IMG/VR virus record: IMGVR_UViG_3300046167_000032
Location: 16,375 to 80,374 of that record
DNA from: a virus
DNA: 64,000 nucleotides
Reading direction: 5' to 3' (one strand)
Shown here piece after piece: positions 4,702 to 59,791 of this stretch. Every line of letters begins with the position of its first letter. Position 1 is the stretch's first letter. The notes under the pieces are model-generated. The model ran no database searches, was not told the origin of the DNA, and saw only the letters and a program-made list of their open reading frames with translations. The position numbers and the translations under genes were made by a program.

Positions 4702-5214
4702 TTATTCCACCATGTGTAATGCTTGTTCAAGCGTTTCTTTGTTACGCCTAGACCAACCACGTCCAAATGTTTTGTACGTATCTAATCCTTCATAGAACCC
4801 TTGTCTTACTGTATATACATAATCAATAATATACTTAGGGTCTTTCTCCATAACAAGTTGTAGTGTCTTAGGACCAATAGCACCATCTGCTGTAGCACCT
4901 ACTGCACGTTGTATAGCTTTAGCAGGTCTACCACTACCACTATTAACAGCCCAATCGAATGCACACCAATCTACCCCCGATGGAAGTTGATCACCTTTGA
5001 CTCTATCCCAATAGTTCTGTTTATATATTGGGGCTACATCTTCTGGTGTTAAATCACGCATCTCTTCTTCTGTAGACTCACGACCAATCCATTCGTCATA
5101 TACACGTTTAGTTACACCAAGATTAGTCATGCCACCGGGATCACTAGGATGATTAACGTAACCACCCTCGTGTTCCAGTAGCATTTCTAAACATTCATTA
5201 AAATTACTCTTCAT
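4702..5214 (-). CDS. Endolysin, glycoside hydrolase family 108
   Basis: HEGGYVNHPSDPGGMTNLGVT motif; C-terminal FGRGWSRR peptidoglycan-binding segment. Confidence 0.92.
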   Translation of the reverse strand: MKSNFNECLEMLLEHEGGYVNHPSDPGGMTNLGVTKRVYDEWIGRESTEEEMRDLTPEDVAPIYKQNYWDRVKGDQLPSGVDWCAFDWAVNSGSGRPAKAIQRAVGATADGAIGPKTLQLVMEKDPKYIIDYVYTVRQGFYEGLDTYKTFGRGWSRRNKETLEQALHMVE

Positions 5215-5216
5215 TA

Positions 5217-5576
5217 TTATTTTTTCCCACCGAAGAACTTACTTACGCCACGCATACCAATGCTGGCACTAACGATTCCACCTAAAGAGTACTGATACCA
5301 ATCAGGCATAACCTCTAACGCAGTAAAACCTGCTTGTACTATTTCATTACCCCAATCACCACAGAAGGCTAAAATCAAAGGAATGGAAAACAATAAAGTA
5401 ATCCATTCATCTTTCCAGCTATTCTGTGTGGCTTTCATAGCCTCAATATCCCAGTCTATTTCACCTGTGGCTATCTTCATTTTTGTTTCAGCTTCTGCTT
5501 TCTTTACAGCAGTCTTGCCTTCTATAACTGTACCAGCAAGATTAGCTACTTGACCTATTAAGTTTAGTCCTAACAT
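5217..5576 (-). CDS. Holin-like membrane protein
   Basis: SWKDEW motif, two hydrophobic segments, basic C-terminus, adjacent to endolysin. Confidence 0.7.
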   Translation of the reverse strand: MLGLNLIGQVANLAGTVIEGKTAVKKAEAETKMKIATGEIDWDIEAMKATQNSWKDEWITLLFSIPLILAFCGDWGNEIVQAGFTALEVMPDWYQYSLGGIVSASIGMRGVSKFFGGKK

Positions 5577-5905
5577 TATCCGTTGTTACCTTTCACTTCT
5601 TTCTTGCTCATGTTAGTTACTCCGAAGAATACACCAACTATACCAGCTACAGATAAGAAATATATAGAGGCCATAGAGCCAATGATGTCAGCGGCTTGAT
5701 CAGCACCTACAATAGTACATAGCAATACTAGAAATGGATATGCAAGCATACCAACTAAGCAGAACCATGCCATACGTCTTTGTGCATCTCTCTGAGCATC
5801 TTCATCATCGAGTCTACGTCTACGATCTTCTAACGCTAAAGCATCCCACTCAGTCTTGTCTATAGAGCCATTGTTGTCTACATCTACTTCTTCAAAGCTA
5901 GTCAT
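5576..5905 (-). CDS. EF-hand-containing two-TM membrane protein in lysis cassette
   Basis: Canonical 12-residue loop DVDNNGSIDKTE followed by two TM helices. Confidence 0.7.
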   Translation of the reverse strand: MTSFEEVDVDNNGSIDKTEWDALALEDRRRRLDDEDAQRDAQRRMAWFCLVGMLAYPFLVLLCTIVGADQAADIIGSMASIYFLSVAGIVGVFFGVTNMSKKEVKGNNG

Positions 5906-32506: not shown

Positions 32507-33030
32507 TATACTCTCCTTGCCATAAGACCACTAGGCTGTGGCTCTTCATCAACTGTATCTTCCATAGGCATATCAGATTTTTCATCAACTTTAATATTGT
32601 CTATTGCTTTAGGTAATCTTTCACGCATCTTTTTCATGGCTATTGCAATCTTAGACTCACTAATTTTATCTTCGTCAACAGCTTTTTCAGTACCTAATGT
32701 ATATTCAATACCAGCTTCATCACCTATAAATGCAAGCATCTCAATGATTACAGGCATAGCTAATATACCTACGTCTATTGTATGTAACCCCTGCATCACC
32801 GCCGTTGATTGCATTGAGTCTGCCATAGTTGTTAGTGGTATACCCAGTTCCATACTGTCGAGTAGTGCATCGTAAACATCGTCAGATGTAAGTCTTGGTA
32901 TATAAAACTCAAGTGCTTCTTCTACTGTGTTATACTTTGGTGGGTTCTGCCAAGGTCTACCGCCAACTTCAGCAGTCATGCCTTGTCCGGGAATAGGATA
33001 GTTAAAAGAGGGAGAAGGTTTATCGACCAT
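32506..33030 (-). CDS. Hypothetical virion-region protein
   Basis: PIPGQGMT..RPWQNPP; ends SGLMARRV. Confidence 0.7.
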   Translation of the reverse strand: MVDKPSPSFNYPIPGQGMTAEVGGRPWQNPPKYNTVEEALEFYIPRLTSDDVYDALLDSMELGIPLTTMADSMQSTAVMQGLHTIDVGILAMPVIIEMLAFIGDEAGIEYTLGTEKAVDEDKISESKIAIAMKKMRERLPKAIDNIKVDEKSDMPMEDTVDEEPQPSGLMARRV

Positions 33031-33235
33031 TGGTAAGTTGCTTTCTCTTTTTACGGATAGAGGTTACATAGTCTCGCACTCTATCAATTGGTTCATTTAA
33101 TTTTTCTTTAGGTTCAGCTTCACGTTTACGAGATAGAAGACCCATACCCATAGAAGATTTCTTAGGCATATCTTCAAGTTCTGCATCTGTAATGTTTAAG
33201 TTTGAATATGCTGTAACTGCTGGGTTAATATTCAT
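33020..33235 (-). CDS. Hypothetical protein
   Basis: 71 aa, coupled to neighbours; SD present. Confidence 0.65.
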   Translation of the reverse strand: MNINPAVTAYSNLNITDAELEDMPKKSSMGMGLLSRKREAEPKEKLNEPIDRVRDYVTSIRKKRKQLTNGR

Positions 33236-33247
33236 TATTGTATTCCT

Positions 33248-35674
33248 TTATCCTAAGATTGCACCTATACCCTTACCAAGTAAGGTATCGCCACCGATAG
33301 GTGATGTAAACATTGTAGCTACTAAACCACCCCATGCAGATGCAGAGTTATAGTCAGCTTGTAGTGCCGCAATATCTGCTTTAGCATCTATCTGTAGTTT
33401 AATTGAAGCTAGATCAACAATACGTTGTCTTTCATTTTCAGCACTATTCCATGCCCACTCCATACTATCAGAGTAGTATGACCACAAATCATTGTATGCA
33501 GTATTAGATATGTCAAGTACATTCTGTGCATTGATTTCATTAGCACGATTGATTGCTACAGTATCTGCAGTAGCAACTTGTCTACGCCACTGTGCATTAT
33601 TCTGATCAATAACTAATCTATTTTGTGCATTGAACTGATCACGTTGATTCATCATCTCTGCCGCAAATCTATTCTGTGCGTTCATCTCACCTGCATTAAA
33701 CTGGTTCTGTGCATTAGTTTGTGCAGTATTAAACTGTGATGTTTGTGCGGCTAAGTTAGCAAAGAACTGATCGGTTTGATTTTGACTTGATGCATTAAAC
33801 TGTGCCGCCGCATTAGTTGCCGCTTGATCTGTAAACAAAGACTGTACTTGTTGTTGTGATTTAAACAACTCAGTTTGTTGTATGTTACTCAAGTTAGTTA
33901 AGTCCATTTGCATAAATGCTTGTGCATTCATTACAGCCGCTTGTTGTCGATTACTTAGGTTAGCCATATCTAAGTTAGACAATGCCGCTGCTTCTGCCAT
34001 TACCATAGCTTGTCTATTAGACAGGTTAGCTATATTAACAGTGTTAGCATTACGACTATTCTCCAAAGCAACCTGTTGTTCAGCAGTGAAGTTCATATTA
34101 GCTACGTCACTAATCTTACTGGCATTCATAACACGTGATTGGAATGCCTGATCAAACTCTTGACCCATGAATGTTGCACGTTGCTGTGCCGCAAGCATAG
34201 CACGTTGTTGTCTGTTTGACAAGTTCTGTGTTTCAAAGGATGCTTGTGTCTGTGCATCAGCCATTGCGATAGGTAATGCTGACTCCATAGCGGCCTGTAC
34301 AATGGCTTGACCTGCCATACTACTAGCACCTAAGCCACGTGCCGCCATAGTCGCTGTAGCAGTCCTCATAGCCCCTGCAGCCCATGCTGGTGTAGCTCCA
34401 CCCTCAAAGTTTGTCATTAATGTGTCAAGTTGCCCTGCCACAGTAGCTTTCTGAGATGGTGATGCAGTAGCCGCTTGCACTTCTTCTGTAAATTTAGCTG
34501 CAGTTTCAGCATTTGCTACACCACTTATAAGTTCACCATTTTCAATCTTACGCTGTACTGGGTTCTCCATTAATATGGATGTACCTTGTGCCGCATCTAA
34601 CTCACTTACACTAGTTGCAGTTGCAGTCTTAGCATCTACAATAGCTTGTGGATTAACTGTACCTGTAGCCGCTTGTGTTTGTGCCAGTGCTTTTGCTACT
34701 TCATCTGCCGATGTAGCCGCAGTCATAGTAGCCGCATCTGTAGGTGCAACAGCACCAGCTTGTGCAACAGTAGCTGTAGTTACAGGAGTAGATATATTAC
34801 CTTCAACCTGCCCACTACGAGGATCAATTATCTGATCACTAGTTATCTGCGTACCTACAGGTTGTACTGTAGCACCATAGGCTAGTGATGGATCAATAGC
34901 TCTATTAGCAATTAACTCAGATACAGATTGACCTTCATATGCACCTGTCTGTGGTACACCACCGACTGAAGTACTTGTACTTTGAGTACTGTTTGCGTTT
35001 ATATTTGGCGTAGTATCACTGGGGCCGGGACCTCTTGCAATAGCATCTGCAATAGCCTTAGCTTCAGCAGGTGATTTTACATCACGTTGTGCCTGTCTAC
35101 TGACAGCCTGATCATATGTGTAGTTATATGTCTGTGGGCTTGTATTAATTGTACCCATATTACCTTGCGCATCTATAGGACCTGTACGTGGGTCTAAAGT
35201 TCCTGATTGTTTAGCTAAATAAGCTTCATATGCTTTATCTTGCGCCTTACCAATACTACCAGAACCCATCTGACCAAAGTAAGGGCTATAGTACATATCT
35301 TGAGTACCCATAGTATTACTATTTTTAAAGTCTGTGTACTCTTGTGAATTGAAAAAGTCTTGGTTTATTTCTGGTAATCGAGGGCGGTTTAATATACCAT
35401 CAGTCTTTGAACCTTCACCTGCAAACATGTTAGGTCTAATATTCATTTGAGAACCAGTAGCTGATGTAGTCACACCACCAACAGCATAGCTAGGTTTCTT
35501 TACCATACCACCCTTAGCCATTTCCATAGCTTTGTTTTGATACATATTCATCTTACTCATTTTATCAGGGTTCTGATTTAAGTAATCATTAAAGCCACTC
35601 ATATCACCTTGATAACCTAAGTTACCTGCAATGCGTTGCATAGCCTGTGGTTTAAATCCTTTGAACTGCATCAT
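33248..35674 (-). CDS. Gln/Asn/Ala-rich internal virion (pilot/ejection-like) protein
   Basis: Long Q/N/A-rich helical region (ANLSNRQQ, QFNA repeats); glycine-rich hydrophobic C-terminus. Confidence 0.6.
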   Translation of the reverse strand: MMQFKGFKPQAMQRIAGNLGYQGDMSGFNDYLNQNPDKMSKMNMYQNKAMEMAKGGMVKKPSYAVGGVTTSATGSQMNIRPNMFAGEGSKTDGILNRPRLPEINQDFFNSQEYTDFKNSNTMGTQDMYYSPYFGQMGSGSIGKAQDKAYEAYLAKQSGTLDPRTGPIDAQGNMGTINTSPQTYNYTYDQAVSRQAQRDVKSPAEAKAIADAIARGPGPSDTTPNINANSTQSTSTSVGGVPQTGAYEGQSVSELIANRAIDPSLAYGATVQPVGTQITSDQIIDPRSGQVEGNISTPVTTATVAQAGAVAPTDAATMTAATSADEVAKALAQTQAATGTVNPQAIVDAKTATATSVSELDAAQGTSILMENPVQRKIENGELISGVANAETAAKFTEEVQAATASPSQKATVAGQLDTLMTNFEGGATPAWAAGAMRTATATMAARGLGASSMAGQAIVQAAMESALPIAMADAQTQASFETQNLSNRQQRAMLAAQQRATFMGQEFDQAFQSRVMNASKISDVANMNFTAEQQVALENSRNANTVNIANLSNRQAMVMAEAAALSNLDMANLSNRQQAAVMNAQAFMQMDLTNLSNIQQTELFKSQQQVQSLFTDQAATNAAAQFNASSQNQTDQFFANLAAQTSQFNTAQTNAQNQFNAGEMNAQNRFAAEMMNQRDQFNAQNRLVIDQNNAQWRRQVATADTVAINRANEINAQNVLDISNTAYNDLWSYYSDSMEWAWNSAENERQRIVDLASIKLQIDAKADIAALQADYNSASAWGGLVATMFTSPIGGDTLLGKGIGAILG

Positions 35675-35706
35675 TCTTCTATCTTCCTTATGTTGTCATG
35701 TGACAA

Positions 35707-35735
35707 ATTATACTCTATCTTAATATCTGTGTCAA
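35707..35735 (-). promoter_or_regulatory. Perfect sigma70 promoter TTGACA-N17-TATAAT for ejection-protein genes
   Basis: Exact consensus read on minus strand in intergenic gap. Confidence 0.85.
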
Positions 35736-35743
35736 GCATTAAC

Positions 35744-36244
35744 TTAATCTGCTAGTGGATTATCTAGTGCACGTTGTAATTTAGTTACTAGTCTATCTTC
35801 TAGTTCTTTCATTTCTGAAGACTGTGATGCCCTTACACGTTCTCGTTGATTCTCAAACCTTATTTCAGCATCATCTATCATAGTACGTACCTTGTCTTCA
35901 TTGTCACGTACCATATCCTCAATACGATCTGTCTGTTGTTCTATTCTTAACAGATCATCTTTCAGACCATTCTTAATATCTCTAGTGTACTCTACACTCT
36001 CTTCAACCTTCTCAGATATACCAGACACTTTAGCATCCATTACATCCATTTGTTGTTGATATGCACCTAAGTCTAACCCTGCAACTTCTTCTATCTTTTG
36101 GTATAGAGTGAAGCCACCATACAGACCACCAACTACTGTAGACAAGAAAGCTATTATAGCTAGTACTGAACTTGCTGTTAGTTTTACACCACCAGCTTTT
36201 ACTTCTTTATCTGCTAGGCTTTCAACGTTTGTTAAATCTACCAT
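35744..36244 (-). CDS. Single-TM coiled-coil protein (exported module)
   Basis: TM VLAIIAFLSTVVGGLYGGFTLY then long coiled coil ending ALDNPLAD. Confidence 0.8.
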   Translation of the reverse strand: MVDLTNVESLADKEVKAGGVKLTASSVLAIIAFLSTVVGGLYGGFTLYQKIEEVAGLDLGAYQQQMDVMDAKVSGISEKVEESVEYTRDIKNGLKDDLLRIEQQTDRIEDMVRDNEDKVRTMIDDAEIRFENQRERVRASQSSEMKELEDRLVTKLQRALDNPLAD

Positions 36245-36660
36245 TAGTTCTCAAAGTCCATACCACCTGTCTGTTGCAGGTTCTTTAATGCTTCTAGCTC
36301 ATTACGTAGTTGTTGTATCTCTAGTCTACGTTGAGCTAACTCTACCTGATACAAGTCGTCACAATTAATACGAGACTTAGGTTTATCAAGAGGTATAACA
36401 ACACGAGCATATAATCCTACATCTTTACTTTGGTGTGCAAAACTTGATGGACTAAATGTACCACCTACATTGTTGACTACACCTGTAACACCAAACTCTA
36501 AGTTTACACCACCACCTACAGCATTACTACAGTCTAAGTTACCTGCCCTAAATCTATCTGACTGATAGTTCATTGGTGGGTTAGGTAGTGTTAGAGCTAG
36601 GTTGTTACTCTCAGCTACTGCTGAACTAGCTACGACACATAATGCCAATGCTAATCTCAT
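36244..36660 (-). CDS. Secreted protein with Cys-flanked amphipathic beta-hairpin and coiled coil (exported module)
   Basis: Signal peptide ending AVA; VNLEFGVTG and VGLYARVVIPL strands between LDC and INC. Confidence 0.75.
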   Translation of the reverse strand: MRLALALCVVASSAVAESNNLALTLPNPPMNYQSDRFRAGNLDCSNAVGGGVNLEFGVTGVVNNVGGTFSPSSFAHQSKDVGLYARVVIPLDKPKSRINCDDLYQVELAQRRLEIQQLRNELEALKNLQQTGGMDFEN

Positions 36661-37043
36661 GCAGGTTCACCATCAATACGAGAGCATATCCTAGAGACAA
36701 CCAAAGTTCTTGAGTCTGTCTTTTTTCTTACCTTTGATGTAGTACAAATATATGTAGCTTCATCTAAATCTAACTCACGTATATACACAATAAAATCTTT
36801 ACGTTCTTTATAACCTACTTTAATGATCCTATACTTAGATGAGAATGGTAGGTTTGTAAAGTTTAAATCAAATAAATCTATCTGATAATATTCTACATCT
36901 TCTCGTGAGTTAAACAAAGACATCTCTGCTTTAACTACACCTGCAACATACGTAGGTTTTAACATTGGGTAGGCTGGTGTCATTTCATGTGCAGAAACAA
37001 CAGTAGCCCAACCCATAAACGCTATGATTAGTTTATTTAGCAA
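36657..37043 (-). CDS. Secreted single-domain PapD-chaperone-like protein (probable TTG start)
   Basis: Signal peptide ending VSA; MTP...SLFN...YYQI...PF...IIKVG...FIVYI...YICTTS...SRIC. Confidence 0.55.
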   Translation of the reverse strand: MLNKLIIAFMGWATVVSAHEMTPAYPMLKPTYVAGVVKAEMSLFNSREDVEYYQIDLFDLNFTNLPFSSKYRIIKVGYKERKDFIVYIRELDLDEATYICTTSKVRKKTDSRTLVVSRICSRIDGEPA

Positions 37044-37521
37044 TACAAGTAGCCTGTACAACTGCAGTGTACGTACCTCCCGGCAAAGGTTTAGCTGAAC
37101 CGTAGACTGCACTTGATGCAGTAGAGAACCATGTTGAACCTGCAAGAGTTAGGTTAAAGATAGTGGTACTATCTACTACAACTTTTGCATCATTATAAGC
37201 TGACATTCCTGACACAGAAGTTTTAGTTACACTTGTACTTCCTGTCCATGCAAGTGTATCTGTAAGGTTGGGTGAAGAGCTAAAGGATGTAGGGTGAGTT
37301 ATGTTTGCAGTGTATGAGTCTGCAATAGATACATCAAACCTAATTACAGGTAGTACACCACCATCTGAAGGTGTTGTGCTTAACTTACTGGCAATAGGGT
37401 TGCCGTATACACCAGCTTTATCTGCTTGAATAACACACTTGGCGGCTACGCTTCCTGTAATATCTACAGTAGCAAATGCTGGTAATGCACAAAGTGATAG
37501 TAGTGCTGTTAAATATTTCAT
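37033..37521 (-). CDS. Secreted fimbrial/pilin-like protein (start MKYLTA)
   Basis: Signal peptide ending AFA; mature N-terminus TVDITGSVAAKC; C-terminal GTYTAVVQATC; S/T/G/A-rich beta protein. Confidence 0.6.
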   Translation of the reverse strand: MKYLTALLSLCALPAFATVDITGSVAAKCVIQADKAGVYGNPIASKLSTTPSDGGVLPVIRFDVSIADSYTANITHPTSFSSSPNLTDTLAWTGSTSVTKTSVSGMSAYNDAKVVVDSTTIFNLTLAGSTWFSTASSAVYGSAKPLPGGTYTAVVQATCIAK

Positions 37522-37529
37522 TGTATTCC

Positions 37530-38402
37530 TCATTTGTTATACTGCATGTCTACCATTTTTTCATGTAGTACTTGTTGGGCTAAATTGTTTCGTAAGGCTT
37601 TCTTATTGTCGGGTATAGTTCCATCTTTTAATCCAGCCGCATCGTTTAGTGTACCGCCGTTTATCTTTGCATTATAATACATATTGATATTAGTTTGTTT
37701 GTTTAGGGCTAATATTATATCGCTTTGATTCTGTGCCTTGAATAGTGTAAGAGCATTAGCAGAGGCAGTTAATCCCATCTCTATGCGTGTCTCCTCTTCT
37801 TCCTCTTCTTCATCTAGTATAAGTTTACCATCTTCGTCATACTGAAACTCTTCAGCTTCTAGTGTATCTACAACTGCATCATCTTCTAGTGCATCATAGA
37901 CTATAACCTCTGGTAATACTGGCATAGGCTTTACATAACCTACACAAGATGGGTCAGACTGTGGATCATAGCATTTGTCTAACCTGTAGTTGTATATTAC
38001 AACAGCATCTTTAACAGTTCCTTCACCCTCAACTTCAACAAACCCAGTACCCCATTTAGATGCTGGTATATTTGAAAGAGGGAAAGACTTAACAATAGTA
38101 TTTCCGGGTACGCCAGACCAGTCATCAGTCTCTCTAAATGTATAACCATCTCCACTTGCGTTGTGATTACCTACATGTACCTTCATGTCAGCATCTGGGT
38201 CTTTTACTGTAGTGTACCTATATAGTAATCCATTTATATCTACACCACCGATACTAGGTAAGATAGAGTCCATAGCCCAACTTAATGCATTAGATGCCGC
38301 ATTACCTGTAGCTCCATACGTATATGGTTCAGAGTAGGAGTAAGAAGGCAAGAGTACTAAAGATAACACCCAAGCCAATCTTAGTTTCACTGTTCTCATC
38401 AA
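37530..38402 (-). CDS. Secreted protein: beta domain, CYDPQSDPSC motif, acidic linker (exported module)
   Basis: Hydrophobic N-terminal signal; Cys pair; poly-Glu linker. Confidence 0.75.
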   Translation of the reverse strand: MMRTVKLRLAWVLSLVLLPSYSYSEPYTYGATGNAASNALSWAMDSILPSIGGVDINGLLYRYTTVKDPDADMKVHVGNHNASGDGYTFRETDDWSGVPGNTIVKSFPLSNIPASKWGTGFVEVEGEGTVKDAVVIYNYRLDKCYDPQSDPSCVGYVKPMPVLPEVIVYDALEDDAVVDTLEAEEFQYDEDGKLILDEEEEEEETRIEMGLTASANALTLFKAQNQSDIILALNKQTNINMYYNAKINGGTLNDAAGLKDGTIPDNKKALRNNLAQQVLHEKMVDMQYNK

Positions 38403-38883
38403 ACATCTTTCTGATTACATCGTTTTGATCTCGTTCGATCTCATCTTTAACTGCTTCCATATCCCATGCTAGTCTAGCTTGATCACCAACTAATCCATCT
38501 TTAGGGCATGGTGTACCTGCATTCATCATAGCATCAAACACTCTTTCGTCTTGACACATTACTGATACTGCGGCTACCTTCATGCCCATGTCATACATAG
38601 TCTTAGCATTCTTGAGCTTCTCACAGTTCATGTCACGTACTGTACGACCTGCTGAGATACCTAGTATCTGTGTCTGTACTGCCCCTGCTACACCTACAGT
38701 ACATAAGTCAGAGTTACTTGCACTTATCTGTGGAGATATAGCCGATGGTGGTGGGCTATTGATTGTAGTATCCATAGAACCATTTGAAGTTATAGTACTA
38801 TTAGTGTCAGTCTTTATAACATCATCATCGGCATGTGCAATACTACCGATTAGTAGGGTAAATAGTATAAGTAAGAGTTTCAT
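38329..38883 (-). CDS. Secreted Cys-containing protein with C-terminal TM anchor (exported module)
   Basis: Signal peptide ending AHA; PPPSAISP, four Cys; C-terminal IGLGVIFSTLAFLLLL. Confidence 0.8.
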   Translation of the reverse strand: MKLLLILFTLLIGSIAHADDDVIKTDTNSTITSNGSMDTTINSPPPSAISPQISASNSDLCTVGVAGAVQTQILGISAGRTVRDMNCEKLKNAKTMYDMGMKVAAVSVMCQDERVFDAMMNAGTPCPKDGLVGDQARLAWDMEAVKDEIERDQNDVIRKMFDENSETKIGLGVIFSTLAFLLLL

Positions 38884-39146
38884 TTATTATCTTGTTCTGC
38901 CATTCTCTCTACTAGGTTACGAATAGCTTTAATGTTTTCATCAATACGTCCTAGAGAGACAGCTTGCATTTGTACTGTCTTCTCTAGTGTATTTATACGA
39001 GTTTCTTGGCGAACTAAATCACGAGCATTATTTTTGACGGAAGAGTCTAATGAAGACACATACCATACAAGTGATATAGTTTGTAGTACGATAGCTACGA
39101 TTAACGTAACTGGTACTGACTTAGAAAGATGCCAACTCTCAGTCAT
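38880..39146 (-). CDS. Single-TM coiled-coil protein
   Basis: TM VTLIVAIVLQTISLVWYV plus coiled coil. Confidence 0.75.
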   Translation of the reverse strand: MTESWHLSKSVPVTLIVAIVLQTISLVWYVSSLDSSVKNNARDLVRQETRINTLEKTVQMQAVSLGRIDENIKAIRNLVERMAEQDNK

Positions 39147-39159
39147 GGTTTAGTATTCC

Positions 39160-39387
39160 TTATTCTGGTTTAGTAGGCCATGTTATATTATTTGGGAAGC
39201 CATCTTGATCTGTAACGTCCAAAAGAGCTTGGCGATAATTTTTCCATGCAGTCTTCTGTTCATCAGATTTTGCTTCCCATTCAATAAATCTGCTAGGCAT
39301 TGGGTCAACTTCAGTTTCTAAAAGTTGATCTCTTATTAACCTAACGGCGCTTTCCATTTGCTCTACTGAGTGTTCTTCACTAGACAT
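39160..39387 (-). CDS. Tail fibre assembly chaperone
   Basis: R..RD.LL.E.D...W.NYRQALLDV..Q.GFP.NI.WP.KP. Confidence 0.85.
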   Translation of the reverse strand: MSSEEHSVEQMESAVRLIRDQLLETEVDPMPSRFIEWEAKSDEQKTAWKNYRQALLDVTDQDGFPNNITWPTKPE

Positions 39388-39406
39388 TTTTAATACCTTT
39401 TTTTAA

Positions 39407-41344
39407 TTAAAGTGGGATTATAGCTAATTGCATTGAGGAATCATACCATTGAAGATAGCCTTGGTTTTGAGTTTCATGTTCCCCAGCCGTAACTCTAATT
39501 TTCTGACCTGAAGAAAGATATGCACTACTCCAACTGCCAAACGGATTACTGATACTGCCTGTACTTGAGCTAGGAGAACCGCCATAAAACGGATTTGTGC
39601 TATTAACGACATTACCATTAACATATACTCTATATGAGTAGCCATAATAACCACCTGTTGAAGTATAATACCTATATTTTAGTAGGGCACTTATCGCAAA
39701 TACAAGACAATCAGAAGTTGCAGTATATTCCAGCAAATACTGACCAGCATTGTATTTTTCTAAAGCACCCTTGTCGTCATTATATGCCGCATTATTACCA
39801 GAAGTTATTGTAACAACGCTCGCTCCACCAGCAGGGTCTGTCCATTGAGCAGTACCAGCAGATGCGTATGTAAGCAGTTGGTTTGCAGAACCGCCACTAG
39901 GGATGTGATTGTTACCATTACCTGTTGGGTGTGTGTAGTTATTAGCACTTGTTGCTATGCCATCAAGCTTAGAACCATCTGATGCTACATCACGTCCGTC
40001 TACTGTACCTGATACAGCTATATTGCCTGTTACGTCAACTCCGCTTGATGTTGTTTCAATTTTCTTTGAATTGTCGTAACGTAGATTTACAGCACCATCC
40101 TTACTAGCACCTATATAAACTTCACCTGATGAACTACCAATCTCAACATAATTATCATCTTGTATATACATATTACCAGTAGTATTAGTAACAAATGTAT
40201 GTGAACCATTGTGATAAATCTGTAGGTCATCAGCATTACCAAATCTAGCTTTCTCATTATCTCCAAAGCTAATTGAGTGACCATTGACATCTAAAGCTCC
40301 ACCTAGTTGTGGTGTAGTGTCACTCACAATGTCTGTGCTTAGATTATCAAATGATGTTTTAAACGCTGCTATGTCTACACCATCTACTGTACCTGATACT
40401 GCAACGTTGCCTGTTACTGATATGCCTGTTGATGTTGTGGCTAGTTTAAGGTTGTTGTCGTAGTAAAGTTTTACTGCGCCATCTTTTATAAACTCAGACA
40501 TTTTTCCGTTTGCGCCGCTACCATCACTTACTAACTGTATCATTGAACCGTTAGTATCTATAGATAGTATGCCATCCCCCACATCTTCTATGTATGAGTT
40601 ATTACCGTCATGGTATATTCTAAAATCAGACCCAGCACCGAATATGGCTTTGTCGTTGTCACCGAATGACAAGTCACCTGTCATTGTGCCACCAGCTTTT
40701 GGTAACTTGGTAGCCAATGCTGTTGTGAGTGTAGAATTATAGTTAGCATCATCATTGATAGCCGCAGCTAACTCATTCAAATCATTGAGTGTGCTTGGTG
40801 CGCCACCTATAAGTGTTGTAATCTTATCTGTAACGTAAGCTGTTGTAGCTACCTTAGTACTATCATCAGACTCAGCTTGTGTTGTTGCTGTAGTAGTAGA
40901 TGATAGAGAACCGCTAAGTGTACCACTGATAGTACCTGTAGCTGTTATGTTACGGAAACCTGTTATATCTTTGTTTGTATTGACTACGACAGCTTTAGAT
41001 GCTGATACTGTACCTGCAGTAATACCATCAATGCTCTCTAAGTCATTCTCATTAATATCAGCACTACCTATTACAAAGCTACCGCCTGAGATAGCACCTG
41101 TAGTTGTTATAGTAGATGAGCCGTTGTCTATATTACCAAAGCCTGACGTTATGCTACCACTATTCAATGAACCTGTAGAGGTGATGTTAGTTGTAGTGAT
41201 ACCATCGACGTATGCTTTGATAGACTGCTGACTAGCAATACCAGTAGCAGAGTCACTAGCAAGATTATCCTCATCAAGGAAGCTCTTACCATCTAAGATG
41301 TTTATCTCTTGAGCACTATCTGCTAAGTCTCTTGCCTTACTCAT
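39407..41344 (-). CDS. Tail fibre protein
   Basis: MSKARDLA start; LNELAAAINDD, GGTMTG, DLQIYHNG fibre modules. Confidence 0.85.
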   Translation of the reverse strand: MSKARDLADSAQEINILDGKSFLDEDNLASDSATGIASQQSIKAYVDGITTTNITSTGSLNSGSITSGFGNIDNGSSTITTTGAISGGSFVIGSADINENDLESIDGITAGTVSASKAVVVNTNKDITGFRNITATGTISGTLSGSLSSTTTATTQAESDDSTKVATTAYVTDKITTLIGGAPSTLNDLNELAAAINDDANYNSTLTTALATKLPKAGGTMTGDLSFGDNDKAIFGAGSDFRIYHDGNNSYIEDVGDGILSIDTNGSMIQLVSDGSGANGKMSEFIKDGAVKLYYDNNLKLATTSTGISVTGNVAVSGTVDGVDIAAFKTSFDNLSTDIVSDTTPQLGGALDVNGHSISFGDNEKARFGNADDLQIYHNGSHTFVTNTTGNMYIQDDNYVEIGSSSGEVYIGASKDGAVNLRYDNSKKIETTSSGVDVTGNIAVSGTVDGRDVASDGSKLDGIATSANNYTHPTGNGNNHIPSGGSANQLLTYASAGTAQWTDPAGGASVVTITSGNNAAYNDDKGALEKYNAGQYLLEYTATSDCLVFAISALLKYRYYTSTGGYYGYSYRVYVNGNVVNSTNPFYGGSPSSSTGSISNPFGSWSSAYLSSGQKIRVTAGEHETQNQGYLQWYDSSMQLAIIPL

Positions 41345-41363
41345 GTTTGATCTCCTATGTAAA

Positions 41364-41672
41364 TCATTCTTCTACTAACATCCAAGATGTAATATCTTCA
41401 TTCCAAATATATTTGTTTTCTATATCAGGTATTTCTACTGGTGCATTCCATTGACAAGTAGTTTCGTTTAATACCCATGAAGGGTATGGTTTTGGGTGTA
41501 TAAAAGCGTCTCTAGTGCTATCGTAAGTACCACCTACACTAGCATAATTTTTTCTTATGTTGCTATTGTATGAGGTTTGTACCCACGTACCTTCAAGCTC
41601 ACTAATATAATCTTCATCAGCAACAATTACCTCTACAACTGTGCCTTCTATAATCTTTGCGTAATGTGCCAT
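41364..41672 (-). CDS. Tail-associated hypothetical protein
   Basis: MAHYAKI...WVQTSYN...RKNYA..G..YD...DAFI.PKPYPSW; between fibre genes. Confidence 0.7.
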   Translation of the reverse strand: MAHYAKIIEGTVVEVIVADEDYISELEGTWVQTSYNSNIRKNYASVGGTYDSTRDAFIHPKPYPSWVLNETTCQWNAPVEIPDIENKYIWNEDITSWMLVEE

Positions 41673-41685
41673 ATTTTATTTACCT

Positions 41686-42657
41686 TTAAGAGATAGCGTA
41701 TCTAACAATAACAATTCCAGAACCGCCACCGCCACCATATCTAGTGCCATCGTAACCAAGAGATCGGCCACCACCGCCACCTCCACCTGTGTTAGCAGAA
41801 GCTGAAGGGGCATAGGGTTGGCTTCCACTAGCACCATTTGCACCGCCACCAGACCCACCAGAACCACCTGAGTAATCCCAAGCACCACCACCTCCGCCAC
41901 CAGCGTAGTAAGTTCCATTTAGCCACTGAGAACCATTACCTCCAGCAGTACCATTAGAGCTACCATAACCTGTTTGATTAGTCCCAGATTGACTTGCGCC
42001 TCCACCGCCAGCACCAGCAGAATAATAGCTGTTAGTTCTATTACCTCCACTATTACCTTGACCTGAAGTTCCTGAACCACCTGATTTATTATCTGGCCCA
42101 CCTGATGCTCCACCACCAGAACCCCCAGAGTTACCATTATAGCCTTCACCACCACCGCCACCGCCGCCAGTTGAGGTCAAACCAAAGCCAGAACTGTTAG
42201 AACCATTGCTACCTGATGATAAATAACCACCGCCGTTACCGCCAGCACCTATAGTAATACTATATCCTTGAGCAGAAGAGTTAGCAGAACCTGTCCTGTA
42301 CCCTCCAGCACCACCACCGCCGCCGTGGGCTGTACCACCGCCTCCACCACCAGCTACTACAAGATACTGTAAAGTGTTTGAACCTGCGGCATTTCCAATA
42401 GAGCTGACAGTAAATGTACCTGACGAAGTAAAGACATGATATTTATAACCACCAGAAGTAGATGTTGTACCACCAGAGGCTGAAATATACTGTGCATTAG
42501 CCTTACCATGACCTTGAGACATAGCAATTTGACCATCAGCATCATCAAATAGAGTTCTTACAGCACTGTCATTCATGGTGATTTGTGCTGTACCACTTAG
42601 GCCAAGCTCTACATTTACGTCATTTAAAGATATCTGTCCGCTAGATGGTAACGTCAT
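41686..42657 (-). CDS. Glycine-rich tail fibre/adhesin
   Basis: YHVFTSSGTF, YLVVAGGGGGG, GGSGIVIVRY polyglycine domain. Confidence 0.85.
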   Translation of the reverse strand: MTLPSSGQISLNDVNVELGLSGTAQITMNDSAVRTLFDDADGQIAMSQGHGKANAQYISASGGTTSTSGGYKYHVFTSSGTFTVSSIGNAAGSNTLQYLVVAGGGGGGTAHGGGGGAGGYRTGSANSSAQGYSITIGAGGNGGGYLSSGSNGSNSSGFGLTSTGGGGGGGEGYNGNSGGSGGGASGGPDNKSGGSGTSGQGNSGGNRTNSYYSAGAGGGGASQSGTNQTGYGSSNGTAGGNGSQWLNGTYYAGGGGGGAWDYSGGSGGSGGGANGASGSQPYAPSASANTGGGGGGGRSLGYDGTRYGGGGGSGIVIVRYAIS

Positions 42658-42660
42658 GTG

Positions 42661-45600
42661 TTATCTCGCCTTTAGTTCTTCGATTTCAGCTTTAAGTTCT
42701 TTGATTGCTTCAATCATTAATCCATGAAGTTGATCATACTGCACTGTCTTGTATTCAGTCTCATCATCTTCACCCATCTTGAGAGGTAATGTACTTTCAG
42801 TAATTGCACTTGGCATTACCTTCTCGACTTCTTGGGCGATAACACCAGCAGACTTTTTGCCATCGGCTAGGTATTCAAATGTGTAACCATTTAGCTGTGA
42901 TACTTTATCTAAGGCATTGTCTATCTTCACGATGTCTTTCTTTAGACGCTCATCAGAGACTGTTGTAGAATAAGCAACAACGTTACCTTCAACGTGTAGG
43001 TCGCCATCATTCTCAAGGCGCATGTCTTCTGCACCATCTAAATACCACTTGTGAGTTGTCGTTCCAACAAGGTAGTAATCGTTAGTGTCACGACCCATGT
43101 AGAAAATCTCACCACGACAGTCGCCGCCGTTGATTGTGCCTGTTACTGTGACACCGCTTGATGTTGTTTCAAATTTCTTGGAGTTGTTGTGGTATAGCTC
43201 TACTGCTCCATTCGGTATAGCTTTAATCATATTTTCGGATGCAGTTTTAATCTGGATTGGGTGGTCATTTACAGCAACAATCTGATTGAAGCCGCCAGCA
43301 TCATGGTAAATCTTTAAATCATGTGAGTTACCAACTCTTAATTCTTTGTTATCTGCTAATTCAATGTGAGAACCAAATGTAGCAATCCCACCTTCAGACA
43401 TATCAAGTGTGAGGGCTGTAATACCAGAACCGCCATCATTGCCTTTAAATACAATGTCTCCGTCTTGTTCCCCAGACCTTAACACAAAATTACTAGAAGC
43501 CTTTTCAACTACTCCGTAAATAGTTCCAGCGTCTTGAAAATAAACTGTACCACTATTATCAGCATCAAGTTTTATAACTCCTGCAACATCTAAGGTTAGG
43601 TCGCCGTTATCTGCAAAAATCCTACCGTTTGTTCCATCGCTGTTTATGGATAAATCTGCCCCTGCTCCCATCTTGACATAAGCGCCATCAGGAAAAGTTG
43701 CATCGTGATTAAAGATTGCTGTACCAGCATCAGACATATCAAGACGAAGGGCTTCTCTCTCTACGCCACCATCATTACCTCTAAAAATAATGTCTTTGTC
43801 TTCGATTATAGATTTAAAAACTGCATCTTCACCATTCCTTCTAATACTTGCAAAGTGTAATCCACCATCCTTAAAAATGATATCAGCACCATCCGCATCA
43901 AGAATAATCTCCCCTGCGGAATCTAGTGTTAGGTCGCCAGATGGACTAGCTATAGAGCCATCTAAGTAGAAGTCTTTAAAACGGCGGCTTGTACTCCCTA
44001 GATCAACAGTATTATTTGATGTAGTACCATAATTGTTAGTTGGTATGACACTGCCAGATGCGAAAGACAAACCAACATGATTTGTAGTTGATGAATATAT
44101 TACAAGGTCATCAGATTTAGTCCCAATATTACCTACAGTTGTGCTGTCTTTGCGGAAGTTGAGTATGTCGCCATCAGAGTTTAGCCTTCCAAAATATCCT
44201 GATGTCTGACCATCAGCCACAGCGGCTATTGCATCAAGGTCTGACCTAAGTTTTATACCTTGACTTACTGTTGCTTGGCTAGTAGTACCCACCAACAAGT
44301 TGCCTGATGAGTCTATACGCATTGTCTCCCCCGACCCACCAACATTTGTAAAAACAAGAGGTGCGGCAGAAGATGATGAGGTAGCAGTTCCACTTTGAAT
44401 ATAATTTACGCCGCCTGTGCTAACAAGCCGCATGGCAGAGTTACTGCTGGAAATATACTGCTCACCAGCGGTTGAGTTATAAACGTGCAAACCCCCACTA
44501 GGCGAACTCGTCCCAATACCAACTCGGCCTGACGAATCTAATGTCATAGCAGTGCTTGATGCATTATCATCAATACCTGTAGATTCAAAACCTGCAATAG
44601 TACCAGTCATAGTACCACCAGCTAGTGGTAGTTTAGTAGCAATAGAGTTTGTTATAGTAGTACTAAATGATGCATCATCGTTTAAAGCTGCGGCTAACTC
44701 ATTAAGTGTATTAAGAGAACCCGGTGAGCTATCTACAAGGTTAGCAATAGCTGTGTCTGTATAAGCTTTGATAGACTGTTGTGTGGCTAGTGCTGTTGCA
44801 CTGTTAGATGCCATATTATCTTCATCAAGTATGTTTGTAATAGACACAGAGCCTGTACCAGATAAACTATCAAACTCAACCGATCCACCAACGTCTAAGT
44901 TACCTGTCATAGTACCGCCAGATAAGTTTAGTTTTTCTGTATCATTAGCTAATGGAATCCAGTTACCTGCATGTGCGAAGTAACCTTTACCTGTTGCATG
45001 AACGTGAGCAAACATACCGTGATAAGTTGATGCACTTGGTAAGTCTGATAATTGAGAATATACGTTACCGAATAGAACTTTATTGCCGTTACCATCAATG
45101 TCACCTGTCATAGTGCCACCAGCTAGACCTAAGAACCTAGCATCAGATGCTGTCTTACTATAGTGATCTGCAAGTTGGAATGTACCGTAACCTACGATGT
45201 CAATAATATCACCAGCAGTAGCACCTGCACTTAGTACTACAGTAGAACCGCTTGTAGCTGTTACGTCTGTACCGACTAAAAGTTTTACACCATTAAGATA
45301 TACATCTACGTAGCCTACATCATATGTTGCAGAGAATGTAGTCTGTCCTGATGTAGCAGTATATGTGTTACGACCAGATGTACCATTAACTGATGAACCT
45401 GCCGCTTGCCAACCACCTGATCCACTACGAACAAACATAATGTTACTTGTAGTGTTAAAATACAATGCACCTGCTATTAAAGCGTCACCATCATTGTCTA
45501 CTGAAGGAGCAGATGATTTAGCACCTAAGTATCTGTCGTCAAAGTCATCATAAGAATTAGCGGCATTAGTAGCACTGGTAGCCGCAGCTGTTGCTGAGTT

Positions 45601-47439
45601 AGCTGAGTTTGTAGCTGATGTTGCCGCTTGAGTAGCTGAAGTAGCCGCTTGAGTAGCACTTGCCGCCGCCGCTGTATTAGAACCTGCGATACTATCAACA
45701 TACAGTTTTGTTGCCGCATCAGTATTAACAGTAGGTGTACCTAATCCAGTAATCTTATTGCCACCCATAGCTATAGCAGATGCCATAGTACCACCTGATT
45801 TTAGTAAGGCAGTTGTGTCAACGTAGTTCTTAGTAGCACCATCTTGATTAGCAGTAGGATCACCTAGTCCAGTTATCTTACTTGTACCCATAGCTATAGC
45901 ACCAGACATAGTGCCACCTGATAAGTTTAACTTAGTAGCATCTTGTGCATCTACATAACCTTTACGAGATAGCTCATCATTTGTTGCAGGGTTAGCTGTA
46001 GATGTTACAGCGTTAGTACCCATTACAATGTCACCTGTTAGTGTTCCACCAGCTAGAGGTAACTTAGTAGCTATAGAATTAGTAATAGTAGTTGAGAAGT
46101 TTGCATCGTCATTGATTGCCGCAGCTAACTCGTTAAGAGTATTTAGGGCATCAGGAGATGAGTCAACTAAAGCAGACACCTCAGTGTCTACATATCCCTT
46201 AGTAGCGGCATCTGTTGAAGCACTTGGAGCACCTAAGCCTGTTACTTTACTACCGCCCATAGCAATAGCACCTGACATAGTTCCACCAGACAAGTTAAGC
46301 TTTAGTGCATCTGCAGTATCTACATAGTTCTTTGTAGCCGCATCTTGAGCACTGGTTGGATCAGTAACATTAGCAATAGTTGTACCTGTAACATCTAGTG
46401 TACCGTTTACAGTTACATTGTTAAATGTAGATAAACCTGACCCTGCAGTTACATTACCCGTCACATTGCCTGTAAGATTACCAGTAACGTTACCTGTGAT
46501 ATTGCCTATTACGTTACCTGTAAGTGGGCCTACAAGACTTGAACCTGTAATTGTTGTACCTGTGATTGCGGCTGTAGAAGAAGCACCAATAATAGTACCA
46601 TCAATATTACCACCGTTTATATCTACAGTAGCTAACGTAGCCTGACCAGATGTAGAGACTGTAGTAAAGCTACCAGCAACGGCTGTTGATGCACCTATAA
46701 CTGTATTGTCTATATTACCTGCATTAATGTCTACAGTAGTTAATGTTGATGTTCCTGTAGCTGTTAGGTCTGTCACAGTAGCAGGTGAAGCTGATGAAGC
46801 ACCAATAGTTGTACCATCAATAGAACCTGCATTAATATCTACAGTAGCAAGAGTAGAAGTACCTGTAGCACTTAGTGTAGTAAATGAACCAGCACCAGCA
46901 GTTGTACCACCTATAGTTACGTTATCTATAGCACCAGAGTTTATGTCTACAGAAGTAATAACACCTGTAGTTATATTAGCTGTGCTTAGGGTAGTTGTTC
47001 CAGTAACACCTAATGTACTTCCTATAGTAAACGTACCTGCAACTGCACCATTAATATCTACATCTAGTGTATCTATGTGTGCTGTACCATCTAAGTATAA
47101 ATCTTTAAACTCTAAACCAGATGTACCTAAGTCTATATCATTAGTTATTACAGGTATAATAGCCCCATCAGAGAAGCGTATTTGTTCTACTGCGGCTGAA
47201 GATACCTCTACAAAGACACCTACTTGATTAGTAGCAGTGTTTATGACGACTTTGTTTAGTGCGTCAACATCACCGATAAGAGGAATGTAACCACCTTCTC
47301 CTGTTGAGCCATCGTGCTTGTGTCCACTTGATACAGCGAATGCATCACGGAGTTTGTTATACTCGGCGTTAATAGGCGCTGCACGAACTGTAGCTGTTGG
47401 TATTATGTCTGCTGAAGACTGTCTTACGTAACCTGCCAA
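42661..47439 (-). CDS. Long tail fibre with C-terminal S74 intramolecular chaperone (probable TTG start)
   Basis: INAGSIDGTTIG and DAATKNYVD repeats; SDERLKKDI...GVIAQEVE; AGGAG SD before 47439. Confidence 0.9.
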   Translation of the reverse strand: MAGYVRQSSADIIPTATVRAAPINAEYNKLRDAFAVSSGHKHDGSTGEGGYIPLIGDVDALNKVVINTATNQVGVFVEVSSAAVEQIRFSDGAIIPVITNDIDLGTSGLEFKDLYLDGTAHIDTLDVDINGAVAGTFTIGSTLGVTGTTTLSTANITTGVITSVDINSGAIDNVTIGGTTAGAGSFTTLSATGTSTLATVDINAGSIDGTTIGASSASPATVTDLTATGTSTLTTVDINAGNIDNTVIGASTAVAGSFTTVSTSGQATLATVDINGGNIDGTIIGASSTAAITGTTITGSSLVGPLTGNVIGNITGNVTGNLTGNVTGNVTAGSGLSTFNNVTVNGTLDVTGTTIANVTDPTSAQDAATKNYVDTADALKLNLSGGTMSGAIAMGGSKVTGLGAPSASTDAATKGYVDTEVSALVDSSPDALNTLNELAAAINDDANFSTTITNSIATKLPLAGGTLTGDIVMGTNAVTSTANPATNDELSRKGYVDAQDATKLNLSGGTMSGAIAMGTSKITGLGDPTANQDGATKNYVDTTALLKSGGTMASAIAMGGNKITGLGTPTVNTDAATKLYVDSIAGSNTAAAASATQAATSATQAATSATNSANSATAAATSATNAANSYDDFDDRYLGAKSSAPSVDNDGDALIAGALYFNTTSNIMFVRSGSGGWQAAGSSVNGTSGRNTYTATSGQTTFSATYDVGYVDVYLNGVKLLVGTDVTATSGSTVVLSAGATAGDIIDIVGYGTFQLADHYSKTASDARFLGLAGGTMTGDIDGNGNKVLFGNVYSQLSDLPSASTYHGMFAHVHATGKGYFAHAGNWIPLANDTEKLNLSGGTMTGNLDVGGSVEFDSLSGTGSVSITNILDEDNMASNSATALATQQSIKAYTDTAIANLVDSSPGSLNTLNELAAALNDDASFSTTITNSIATKLPLAGGTMTGTIAGFESTGIDDNASSTAMTLDSSGRVGIGTSSPSGGLHVYNSTAGEQYISSSNSAMRLVSTGGVNYIQSGTATSSSSAAPLVFTNVGGSGETMRIDSSGNLLVGTTSQATVSQGIKLRSDLDAIAAVADGQTSGYFGRLNSDGDILNFRKDSTTVGNIGTKSDDLVIYSSTTNHVGLSFASGSVIPTNNYGTTSNNTVDLGSTSRRFKDFYLDGSIASPSGDLTLDSAGEIILDADGADIIFKDGGLHFASIRRNGEDAVFKSIIEDKDIIFRGNDGGVEREALRLDMSDAGTAIFNHDATFPDGAYVKMGAGADLSINSDGTNGRIFADNGDLTLDVAGVIKLDADNSGTVYFQDAGTIYGVVEKASSNFVLRSGEQDGDIVFKGNDGGSGITALTLDMSEGGIATFGSHIELADNKELRVGNSHDLKIYHDAGGFNQIVAVNDHPIQIKTASENMIKAIPNGAVELYHNNSKKFETTSSGVTVTGTINGGDCRGEIFYMGRDTNDYYLVGTTTHKWYLDGAEDMRLENDGDLHVEGNVVAYSTTVSDERLKKDIVKIDNALDKVSQLNGYTFEYLADGKKSAGVIAQEVEKVMPSAITESTLPLKMGEDDETEYKTVQYDQLHGLMIEAIKELKAEIEELKAR

Positions 47440-47443
47440 AGTA

Positions 47444-55245: not shown

Positions 55246-55256
55246 GGGATGTTTCC

Positions 55257-55475
55257 TTATTTGTGTTTTAATACTTCGTCACGTAACAATTTTATTCTAC
55301 GTAATTGAAAGATCGCACCTTGTGCTCGGTATATGATCTTATCATTGTCAGCTTGTTCCATAGTTCTGTGCTGTTGAGCTATTAGAGAATCTATATAACT
55401 ATTGAACTGTTCCCATTGCTGGTGGTTGCTGACCATTGCCTTGAGCTTGCTCAGGTGCTCCTTGTCCTTCTGCAT
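55257..55475 (-). CDS. Small hypothetical protein (copy 2)
   Basis: Identical protein to 167..385. Confidence 0.75.
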   Translation of the reverse strand: MQKDKEHLSKLKAMVSNHQQWEQFNSYIDSLIAQQHRTMEQADNDKIIYRAQGAIFQLRRIKLLRDEVLKHK

Positions 55476-57549: not shown

Positions 57550-57559
57550 TTATTTGTCC

Positions 57560-59140: not shown

Positions 59141-59423
59141 TATCTAACCGTTTCTTTAAACCTACATGAGAAATAGTTCTACCAGTATTTCTAGTCAACC
59201 AGTTAGCAACTTCTCGATATGAATACTGTTTTAAGTATTTCTGTGCTTGCTCAAGCATATCAAGTTCTGCACTAATTGGCAAGAGTATTCCTTTATCTTT
59301 TGGGTCTAATTCATAGCCAAAGGGAATCGTTCTTGCTACACGTGGGATTGCTACCCATCTACTATTTTCTTTAAGGTCTGTCGGTTGTGGTAATTTCCAT
59401 TTACCTAATGGTTTAGTCATCAT
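58995..59423 (-). CDS. HTH protein (copy 2)
   Basis: Same as 3905..4333. Confidence 0.6.
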   Translation of the reverse strand: MMTKPLGKWKLPQPTDLKENSRWVAIPRVARTIPFGYELDPKDKGILLPISAELDMLEQAQKYLKQYSYREVANWLTRNTGRTISHVGLKKRLDNERQRKNKAGSLRRWADYAKKAIAKAEEIERTRLGAKEKEDTEETRAA

Positions 59424-59787: not shown

Positions 59788-59791
59788 ATTA

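Follow-up and report, generated by a model that had tools for sequence, protein, structure and literature searches.

A conserved cassette of exported and membrane proteins in marine podoviruses, tentatively linked to host lysis

What use a tailed phage might make of a run of genes whose products are addressed to the envelope of its host is the question raised by a stretch of viral DNA in IMG/VR record IMGVR_UViG_3300046167_000032. The window analysed here is the whole of that stretch, 64,000 nucleotides (positions 16,375 to 80,374 of the record), and derives from a marine podovirus of ~55 kb. On its minus strand, at 35744-39146, lie seven coupled genes (the module), with a tail-fibre assembly gene on one side and internal virion protein genes on the other. 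A first-pass annotation made from the sequence had described them as a pilus-like module with pilin-like and chaperone-like members. Our analysis identifies a strongly conserved cassette, very common in marine viromes, which on gene content divides into two separable units. Among the explanations weighed below we rank highest, tentatively, a late envelope device tied to lysis that would help to breach the outer layers of the cell. The seven genes, with transmembrane and immunoglobulin abbreviated as TM and Ig, are the following.

38880..39146, minus strand: g88, 88 amino acids (aa), N-terminal TM segment and coiled coil (heptad stretches at 25-85)
38329..38883, minus strand: g184, signal peptide, Pro-rich stretch, four-Cys core (~residues 43-140) and C-terminal membrane anchor; phrog_20531, 1.4e-13
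37530..38402, minus strand: g290, signal peptide, beta-rich two-Cys N-domain, acidic linker and helical C-terminal part ending VDMQYNK
37033..37533, minus strand: g166p, exported Ig-like subunit with conserved Cys33 and Cys163; likely start at the second ATG, 37521; phrog_25895
36657..37043, minus strand: g128, exported single Ig domain resembling the N-terminal half of PapD-like chaperones; TTG start
36244..36660, minus strand: g138, signal peptide, Pro-rich stretch, Cys-bracketed amphipathic beta-hairpin region and C-terminal helix; phrog_37374, 2.7e-6
35744..36244, minus strand: g166cc, type II membrane protein, TM segment at ~24-46 and long periplasmic coiled coil; homologue of HTVC115P gp49, E 1.4e-14

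All seven open reading frames (ORFs) were found at these coordinates, and the tight coupling and flanking genes reported in the first-pass annotation hold. The g88/g184, g290/g166p and g128/g138 junctions are ATGA overlaps, the g138/g166cc junction is TAATG, and g166p and g128 overlap by 11 nt, the latter beginning with a TTG at 37043 and with TTG or GTG in 25 of 25 diverse relatives. The longest overlap, 71-74 nt between g184 and g290, is kept in all 68 of 68 relatives; at 38329-38402 of the window the C-terminal membrane anchor of g184 and the signal peptide of g290 share DNA in two frames, as they do in gp54/gp53 of Pelagibacter phage HTVC115P, the nearest cultured relative by layout. About 100 IMG/VR loci, with identities falling to 37-68%, preserve the colinear arrangement of g184 to g166cc, so that the gene-order conservation proposed as a check does extend across phages. 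The median ratio of nonsynonymous to synonymous rates (dN/dS) against relatives is 0.06-0.15, with dS saturated. This ratio and this colinearity show the module genes to be real.

Five of the proteins (g184, g290, g166p, g128 and g138) begin with short Sec-type leaders that end in AHA, SYS, AFA, VSA and AVA, each made up of a basic n-region followed by a hydrophobic core, with small residues occupying -3 and -1. In alignments of 41-64 unique homologues per family, the leader sequences vary but retain their n/h/c pattern, the mature start stays in place, conserved mature sequence begins directly after the leader, and the numbers of mature Cys are fixed at 4, 2, 2, 2 and 2. The leaders and the even Cys numbers claimed previously are thereby upheld, and we infer from the alignments that the leaders are cleaved. 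Hydrophobic segments and heptad stretches were likewise found where the first-pass annotation had placed single-TM coiled coils, in the flanking g88 and g166cc (heptad stretches at 63-128 in the latter, whose aligned C-termini share an invariant D-N-P-L motif), together with the C-terminal TM segment of g184. That the genes encode exported or membrane proteins with conserved co-occurrence is therefore supported. These observations also bear on a plainer explanation, in which the products are virion components or assembly factors with uncleaved hydrophobic N-termini. The location of the module inside a structural gene cluster would suit that explanation, as would Vibrio phage pVco-14, in which the homologues of g166p, g128 and g138 stand between a large protein and a head-tail adaptor. 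However, variable leaders that retain their pattern, the small -3/-1 residues and a conserved mature part directly behind them are difficult to reconcile with it, the even, invariant Cys numbers fit an oxidising compartment, and no structural PHROG was matched. We consider it very unlikely.

Similarity searches assigned few names to these proteins. Pfam, NCBIfam and PADLOC returned nothing for the five exported proteins, and profile searches of PDB sequences with the g166p, g128, g184 and g138 alignments returned nothing; g166p and g128 were assigned to no known family by these sequence libraries (Pfam, PDB sequences). A BFVD fold search gave no informative match, and ESM Atlas, queried with g184, gave viral unnamed clusters only. 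Among 400 sampled Gammaproteobacteria, searched for chromosomal copies with the g128 profile and phrog_37374, none was found, the one weak match being spurious. The 17 matches to g184 in genome contigs all fall in metagenome-bin or single-cell contigs resembling phage DNA. No description of the cassette was found in the sequence records or literature searched, where the homologues are all annotated as hypothetical.

The first-pass annotation had treated the seven genes as one machine, and this was not supported: the distribution of relatives separates a unit A (g184, g290 and g166cc) from a unit B (g166p, g128 and g138) that sits between g290 and g166cc. Unit A recurs in pelagiphages. In HTVC115P, the tail-fibre assembly gene is followed by a g184 homologue (E 3e-40), a 466-aa exported g290-like protein (gp53) ending VDMQYR, small genes, the g166cc homologue (E 1.4e-14) and a homologue of the window's 808-aa protein; no g166p, g128 or g138 was found in this phage. 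Similarly, a freshwater locus (L117) carries g184, g290-like and g166cc homologues without unit B, and with a two-TM EF-hand protein in between. HTVC033P, HTVC202P and the myovirus Mosig each combine a g184-domain gene with a long exported acidic-linker protein and a TM/coiled-coil protein ending N-P-L. Here equivalence rests on order and architecture, as hhalign comparisons of g290 and g166cc with HTVC033P gp45/gp44 and Mosig 201/200 gave probabilities of 0-34% and leave homology unproven.

Unit B was encountered alone in the T5-like Vibrio phage pVp-1, to which a freshwater variant of g128 led us. Genes 0077, 0078 and 0079 of pVp-1 match the g166p, g128 and g138 profiles with hhalign probabilities of 96.6%, 37.5% and 96.9%, and are colinear with them. 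The trio follows a large phrog_10818 protein and is itself followed by a small lipoprotein, one small gene, a T-type holin and an endolysin. A phrog_10818 protein of 770-861 aa precedes the trio without exception in three Vibrio phage groups (L138:422-3007, L139:283-2595, L140:919-3375). The lipoprotein gene of pVp-1, 0080 (L138:4146-4352), is annotated at 52 aa; it probably starts earlier, at a GTG, which would yield a lipoprotein leader reading …LSLMISG-C, it overlaps the 3' end of 0079, and its family, phrog_16916, accompanies the trio in two of the Vibrio phage groups. The g166p family as a whole occurs in at least 179 GenBank records of cultured Vibrio phages of several genome sizes, all labelled hypothetical.

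Such separability invites the view that A and B are unrelated cargo, neighbours by chance in this lineage, each with a different envelope function. Their separate occurrence and the insertion of B between g290 and g166cc agree with this view. However, the succession g184-g290-g166p-g128-g138-g166cc persists where identity has fallen to 29-60%, in relatives from marine and freshwater sources (L106, L113 and L116), and stops and starts are coupled between the genes; we hold chance adjacency to be quite unlikely.

Within unit B, g166p and g128 had been proposed as a fimbrial subunit and as a single PapD-type Ig domain, respectively. The AlphaFold2 model of g166p is an all-beta sandwich spanning residues 33 to 166 (pLDDT 90.3). 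Foldseek places chaperone-usher pilins first (CfaB, CsuA/B, the PapG pilin domain, Caf1, FimG and CupE), at E ~0.01 and TM-scores of 0.4-0.5. VIA-align, in contrast, prefers complete Ig domains of staphylococcal adhesins and integrins (Z 7.7, root-mean-square deviation 3.3, 107 aligned residues) and scores pilins below Z 6.1. In ESM Atlas an SCPU cluster appears only at rank 25, with a score of 0.95. A phmmer search of 1.84 billion representatives gave 78 relatives, most above 44% identity and no named pilin among them; 1234 homologues were found in a large protein collection. Two motifs are pilin-like: 11 free N-terminal residues precede Cys33 and contain a nearly invariant I25-x-G27-x-V29, which is absent from the pVp-1 homologue, and the C-terminal strand carries G-x-Y-x-A-x-V. 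The fimbrial assignment is thus partly supported, at the level of motifs and a weak fold resemblance; membership of a pilin family is not supported, with no match in Pfam or among PDB sequences.

The model of g128 is one Ig domain of ~110 mature residues (pLDDT 80.7). Its VIA matches range from Z 6.7 to 8.7 and include a FixG-related domain (Z 8.6) and a Cu-only superoxide dismutase (Z 8.1); the group of PapD-like chaperones and MSP domains includes SafB (7.6), FimC (7.5), CfaA (7.5), YadV (7.0), PapD (6.7) and MSP/VAP domains (6.7-7.3), all in a range where only a common arrangement may be shared. The single Ig domain and its PapD-like matches (Z 6.7-7.6) stand, and membership of the PapD family is not supported. 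The mature N-terminus of g128 is an invariant His-Glu in the marine clade, and copper proteins are among the fold matches; a copper-binding 'histidine brace' was considered and dropped, as the pVp-1 homologue starts with Leu and this segment is predicted to contact g166p.

More telling than the fold matches is the outcome of modelling the mature parts of the two proteins together, a multimer check that the first-pass annotation had proposed: they were predicted to bind each other. The complex reached an ipSAE of 0.72 (0.70, 0.72 and 0.74 in three runs) against 0.02 for the best of three controls. Among solved complexes 58 of 80 attain this mark, and among mismatched pairs 2 of 110 do; for a predicted docking, however, it can stem from resemblance to chaperone-subunit complexes of solved structure. 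At least 86% of the contacts are common to the runs, with partner pLDDT of at least 88. Pilus chaperones grip their subunits with the last strand and the N-terminal segment, set against the first and last strands of the subunit. In our model, residues 114-120 of g128 run in register with residues 158-163 of g166p and also touch 33-36, and the invariant N-terminal segment of g128 (residues 19-25) lies at the same interface; chaperone-style binding, with the last strand along the C-terminal strand of the subunit, is thus predicted.

Whether this pair builds a fibre was a central idea of the first-pass annotation, which had noted that no usher was recognisable. We agree on the latter point: the usher family PF00577 has no match at E ≤ 1 anywhere in the 80-kb record, in a search whose E. 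coli control was positive. With no usher, no ordinary pilus would be made. Nor did the record match the PapD-type family PF00345, g128 having one Ig domain where the pilus chaperone has two, or did the pilin families (Fimbrial, SCPU) match in Pfam. A fibre might nonetheless form without an usher if g128 held g166p until polymerisation by strand exchange, and the product remained periplasmic or reached the surface through an oligomeric pore of g138 or g184; aggregation, adhesion or masking are possible uses. The predicted docking, the free N-terminal 11-mer and C-terminal strand motif of g166p, its weak pilin matches in Foldseek and ESM Atlas, and the alignment of g138, in which two amphipathic strands lie between invariant Cys and are followed by a helix, can all be read in this way. 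The missing usher and pilin, SCPU and PapD families count against it, as do the preference of VIA-align for complete adhesin Ig domains and the loss of the N-terminal motif in pVp-1; the pore, moreover, is proposed from a sequence pattern, and a suspected homology of g184 and g138 was dropped at an hhalign probability of 18.8%. We find such a fibre doubtful, and nothing was found in support of the surface appendage or pilus originally suggested. A broader version of the idea, which we also regard as improbable, is that a chaperone-subunit system without an usher, as yet undescribed, is present in many tailed-phage lineages, including HMO-2011-like podoviruses and both T5-like and other siphoviruses of Vibrio. 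A half-chaperone would in that case pass an Ig-like subunit on to a small envelope component that assembles itself (g138, together with g166cc or a lipoprotein), and the phage would thereby erect a structure of its own on the host envelope or spanning it.

The reading that we prefer, tentatively, draws on gene neighbourhood as well as on the gene coupling, leaders, paired Cys, low dN/dS, separability of the units and predicted docking described above. Synteny was counted over 68 distinct g138-g166cc haplotypes, 52 of which retain at least 1.5 kb downstream. Directly after g166cc, genes of the two-TM EF-hand protein/holin-like/endolysin group follow in 38 of the 52, the 808-aa protein follows in 13, as in the window, and another gene follows in one. 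Genes with the g184 domain lie one to four genes from lysozyme or holin genes in HTVC033P, CRP-207, CRP-810 and Mosig, and in pVp-1 and Thalassa two small genes separate unit B from the T-holin and endolysin that follow. A further link to lysis is the Rz-like spanin pair that immediately precedes g184 in L106. Secondly, ordinary spanins appear to be missing from the phage in question, as suspected in the first-pass annotation. A lipobox screen of ORFs of at least 25 aa turned up nothing in the window, a stretch longer than one genome, and no credible candidate in either HTVC115P or HTVC202P; as a control, it detected the o-spanin of the distant relative L106. A preprint (bioRxiv 10.1101/515445) reports that ~15% of phages infecting Gram-negative hosts have no spanins.

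On this basis the module would be a late cassette of envelope proteins exported by Sec, composed of two units that are also encountered separately. Unit A would supply inner-membrane-anchored and periplasmic proteins, with the variable small TM/coiled-coil gene g88 in front. Within unit B, the one-domain, PapD-like g128 would cap the Ig-like g166p in the periplasm, its last strand and N-terminal segment lying on the first and last strands of the subunit, and g138 would contribute a protein of beta-hairpin and helix. The products may form a complex that is anchored in the inner membrane by g166cc and g184 and reaches the outer layers. Acting at the end of infection, after holin and endolysin, this complex might break the outer membrane, or the link between wall and outer membrane, in a phage that apparently lacks a lipoprotein spanin.

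Several observations weigh against this proposal. Firstly, L106 has an Rz-like i-spanin (phrog_739, 2.5e-13) and a lipoprotein o-spanin (phrog_812, 4.5e-14) directly upstream of g184, so that the module is not simply a spanin substitute. Secondly, its association with lysis genes is uneven: ~20 kb separate it from the endolysin in both the window and HTVC115P, unit B of pVco-14 stands among structural genes, and in locus L113 the six genes are alone on their strand. Late genes of small phages cluster anyway, which makes synteny weak evidence. Thirdly, no member of the module rises above threshold for any lysis family, g88 having only weak matches to holin and Rz PHROGs. Finally, the g128-g166p docking is a model prediction that may mirror solved chaperone-subunit complexes, and lysis offers no reason for a chaperone-capped Ig subunit. 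Disruption of the outer membrane had been the alternative in the first-pass annotation; it suits the holin-endolysin synteny of the relatives better than an appendage does. The spanin pair of L106 (L106:3239-4073) is of the canonical separated type, with LGGC as the lipobox of the o-spanin.

A position next to tail-fibre genes suggests a different role, in which periplasmic proteins block or sense an incoming phage and so exclude superinfection, mask receptors or control when lysis occurs. T4 Sp, Imm and RI as well as T5 Llp and Cor offer comparisons for exclusion and timing, and Llp and Cor are encoded beside receptor-binding genes. The module follows tail-fibre genes in the window, HTVC115P and CRP-810; unit B of the three Vibrio phage groups always follows the phrog_10818 protein and comes with a small lipoprotein; and the T-type holin of pVp-1 belongs to a type under periplasmic regulation. 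However, modules that share 96% identity or more with that of the window stand beside tail fibres only 39-76% identical, and the module therefore does not track the receptor-binding gene, a point that we also count in favour of the lysis reading. It also lacks a strong promoter of its own, being within a late structural operon, PADLOC matches amount to coiled-coil noise, and six conserved proteins are many for such a function. We regard exclusion or timing as unlikely. The fibre genes themselves (window positions 39407-47466 and loci L006-L012) are mosaic: in contigs whose envelope module is 96-100% identical to that of the window, the fibres are 39-76% and the 808-aa protein 57-96% identical.

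The remaining proteins are characterised mainly by their alignments. The core of g184 is nearly 100% identical, with four invariant Cys, which suggests a very constrained target; residues 43-140 keep this ~100% identity among relatives whose other module proteins are 60-85% identical. Pelagiphages, roseophages and RSP15 all have its domain. For gp53 of Roseobacter phage CRP-810 (L108:3276-4031), the GenBank label 'OmpA family protein' was set aside, having no Pfam support; this protein carries the g184 four-Cys domain (phrog_20531). The first gene, g88, is variable, and many relatives lack it or have an unrelated 78-aa TM/coiled-coil protein instead. Its matches are weak, to DUF7365 (1.7e-5, below the family cut-off) and to holin and Rz-like PHROGs (8e-5 to 5e-3).

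The module can be placed in the wider genome through the following features, the last four of which are a lysis cassette ~20 kb away, upstream of the terminase genes, and its three members.

39160..39387, minus strand: tail-fibre assembly protein gene, upstream neighbour of the module (PF16778, E 7e-14; PHROG tail-fibre assembly families)
35707..35735, minus strand: sigma-70 consensus (TTGACA, 17 nt, TATAAT), a 12/12 match that marks the downstream end of the module
4702..5905, minus strand: lysis cassette of the window phage, with a second haplotype copy at 59792-61194
5576-5905, minus strand: two-TM protein with EF-hand loop, first in the lysis cassette (other copy 60865-61194)
5217-5576, minus strand: holin-like protein of the lysis cassette
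4702-5214, minus strand: GH108 endolysin of the lysis cassette

The perfect promoter consensus, the sole 12/12 match in 33000-41500, lies 9 nt past the g166cc stop and ahead of the downstream neighbour, the gene of the 808-aa Q/N-rich homologue of HTVC115P gp47. The EF-hand protein has 109 aa, an N-terminal EF-hand-type loop (weak Pfam EF-hand matches) and two TM segments. In minus-strand order, the genes encode endolysin, small and large terminase, portal, major capsid and tail tube proteins; then a 1601-aa fibre, a Gly-rich protein, a 645-aa fibre and the tail-fibre assembly protein; and finally the seven module proteins, the 808-aa protein and further large proteins. The IMG/VR record of 80,374 bases exceeds one genome length of this ~55-kb phage. 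Window positions 309-2459 are repeated at 55399-57549, 1-8300 and 55091-64000 being two overlapping copies that differ in sequence, and the module region is present again at the start of the record with 96% identity. Since the copies differ, we interpret the record as a concatemer-like assembly of two haplotypes and not as a terminal repeat.

HMO-2011-like phages and pelagiphages rank with the most abundant marine viruses. A conserved exported cassette beside lysis genes is a concrete candidate for the means by which spanin-less phages open the outer membrane in magnesium-rich seawater. An usher-less chaperone-subunit system, if true, would be a new kind of envelope assembly pathway. As unit B is carried by cultured Vibrio phages (pVp-1, Thalassa) and unit A by pelagiphages in culture, both ideas are within reach of standard genetic and biochemical tests.

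How the module compares with known systems depends on which of its parts are considered. Exclusion proteins such as T5 Llp, Cor of T1/phi80 and T4 Sp/Imm are encoded near receptor-binding genes, and resemble the module in being small exported phage proteins that follow tail-fibre genes, with a small lipoprotein in the Vibrio phage version; they differ from it in that the module is multi-gene, late in placement, does not co-vary with the fibre and shares no sequence similarity with them. With regard to holins, g88 has a weak match to phrog_1296 (8e-5), and another gene of the phage, holin-like, adjoins that of the endolysin.

Spanins offer a further comparison. Both g166cc and g88 have the i-spanin layout of two-component systems (lambda Rz/Rz1, P2 LysB/LysC), an N-terminal TM segment and a periplasmic coiled coil, with weak family matches (2e-3 to 5e-3 for g88 against Rz-like PHROGs). 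The end-to-end layout of g184, an N-terminal export signal and a C-terminal TM segment, recalls the unimolecular spanin gp11 of T1, although its leader ends AHA-D with no Cys and hence bears no lipoprotein signal. The module genes adjoin holin and endolysin in most relatives, and the window phage is without an ordinary spanin. Unlike spanins, the module has no lipoprotein partner, comprises six or seven proteins where spanins comprise one or two, and coexists with true spanins in L106.

Chaperone-usher pili (FGL-type Caf1M-Caf1/SafB-SafA, archaic CsuC-CsuA/B) differ from the module in having an usher, a two-domain chaperone where g128 has one domain of ~110 residues, and recognised sequence families; the module is phage-encoded, lies in a late operon with membrane-anchored coiled-coil proteins and is not known to give rise to a fibre. 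There are also resemblances to these pili. In both, an exported Ig-like subunit gene adjoins that of an exported Ig-like partner, whose last strand and N-terminal segment are predicted, in the module, to lie along the first and last strands of the subunit, and the C-terminal G-x-Y strand motif of g166p and the weak fold matches to pilins and PapD-like chaperones are further points of likeness. If true, a one-domain chaperone-like protein that clasps a pilin-like subunit without an usher would widen the range of known chaperone-subunit systems.

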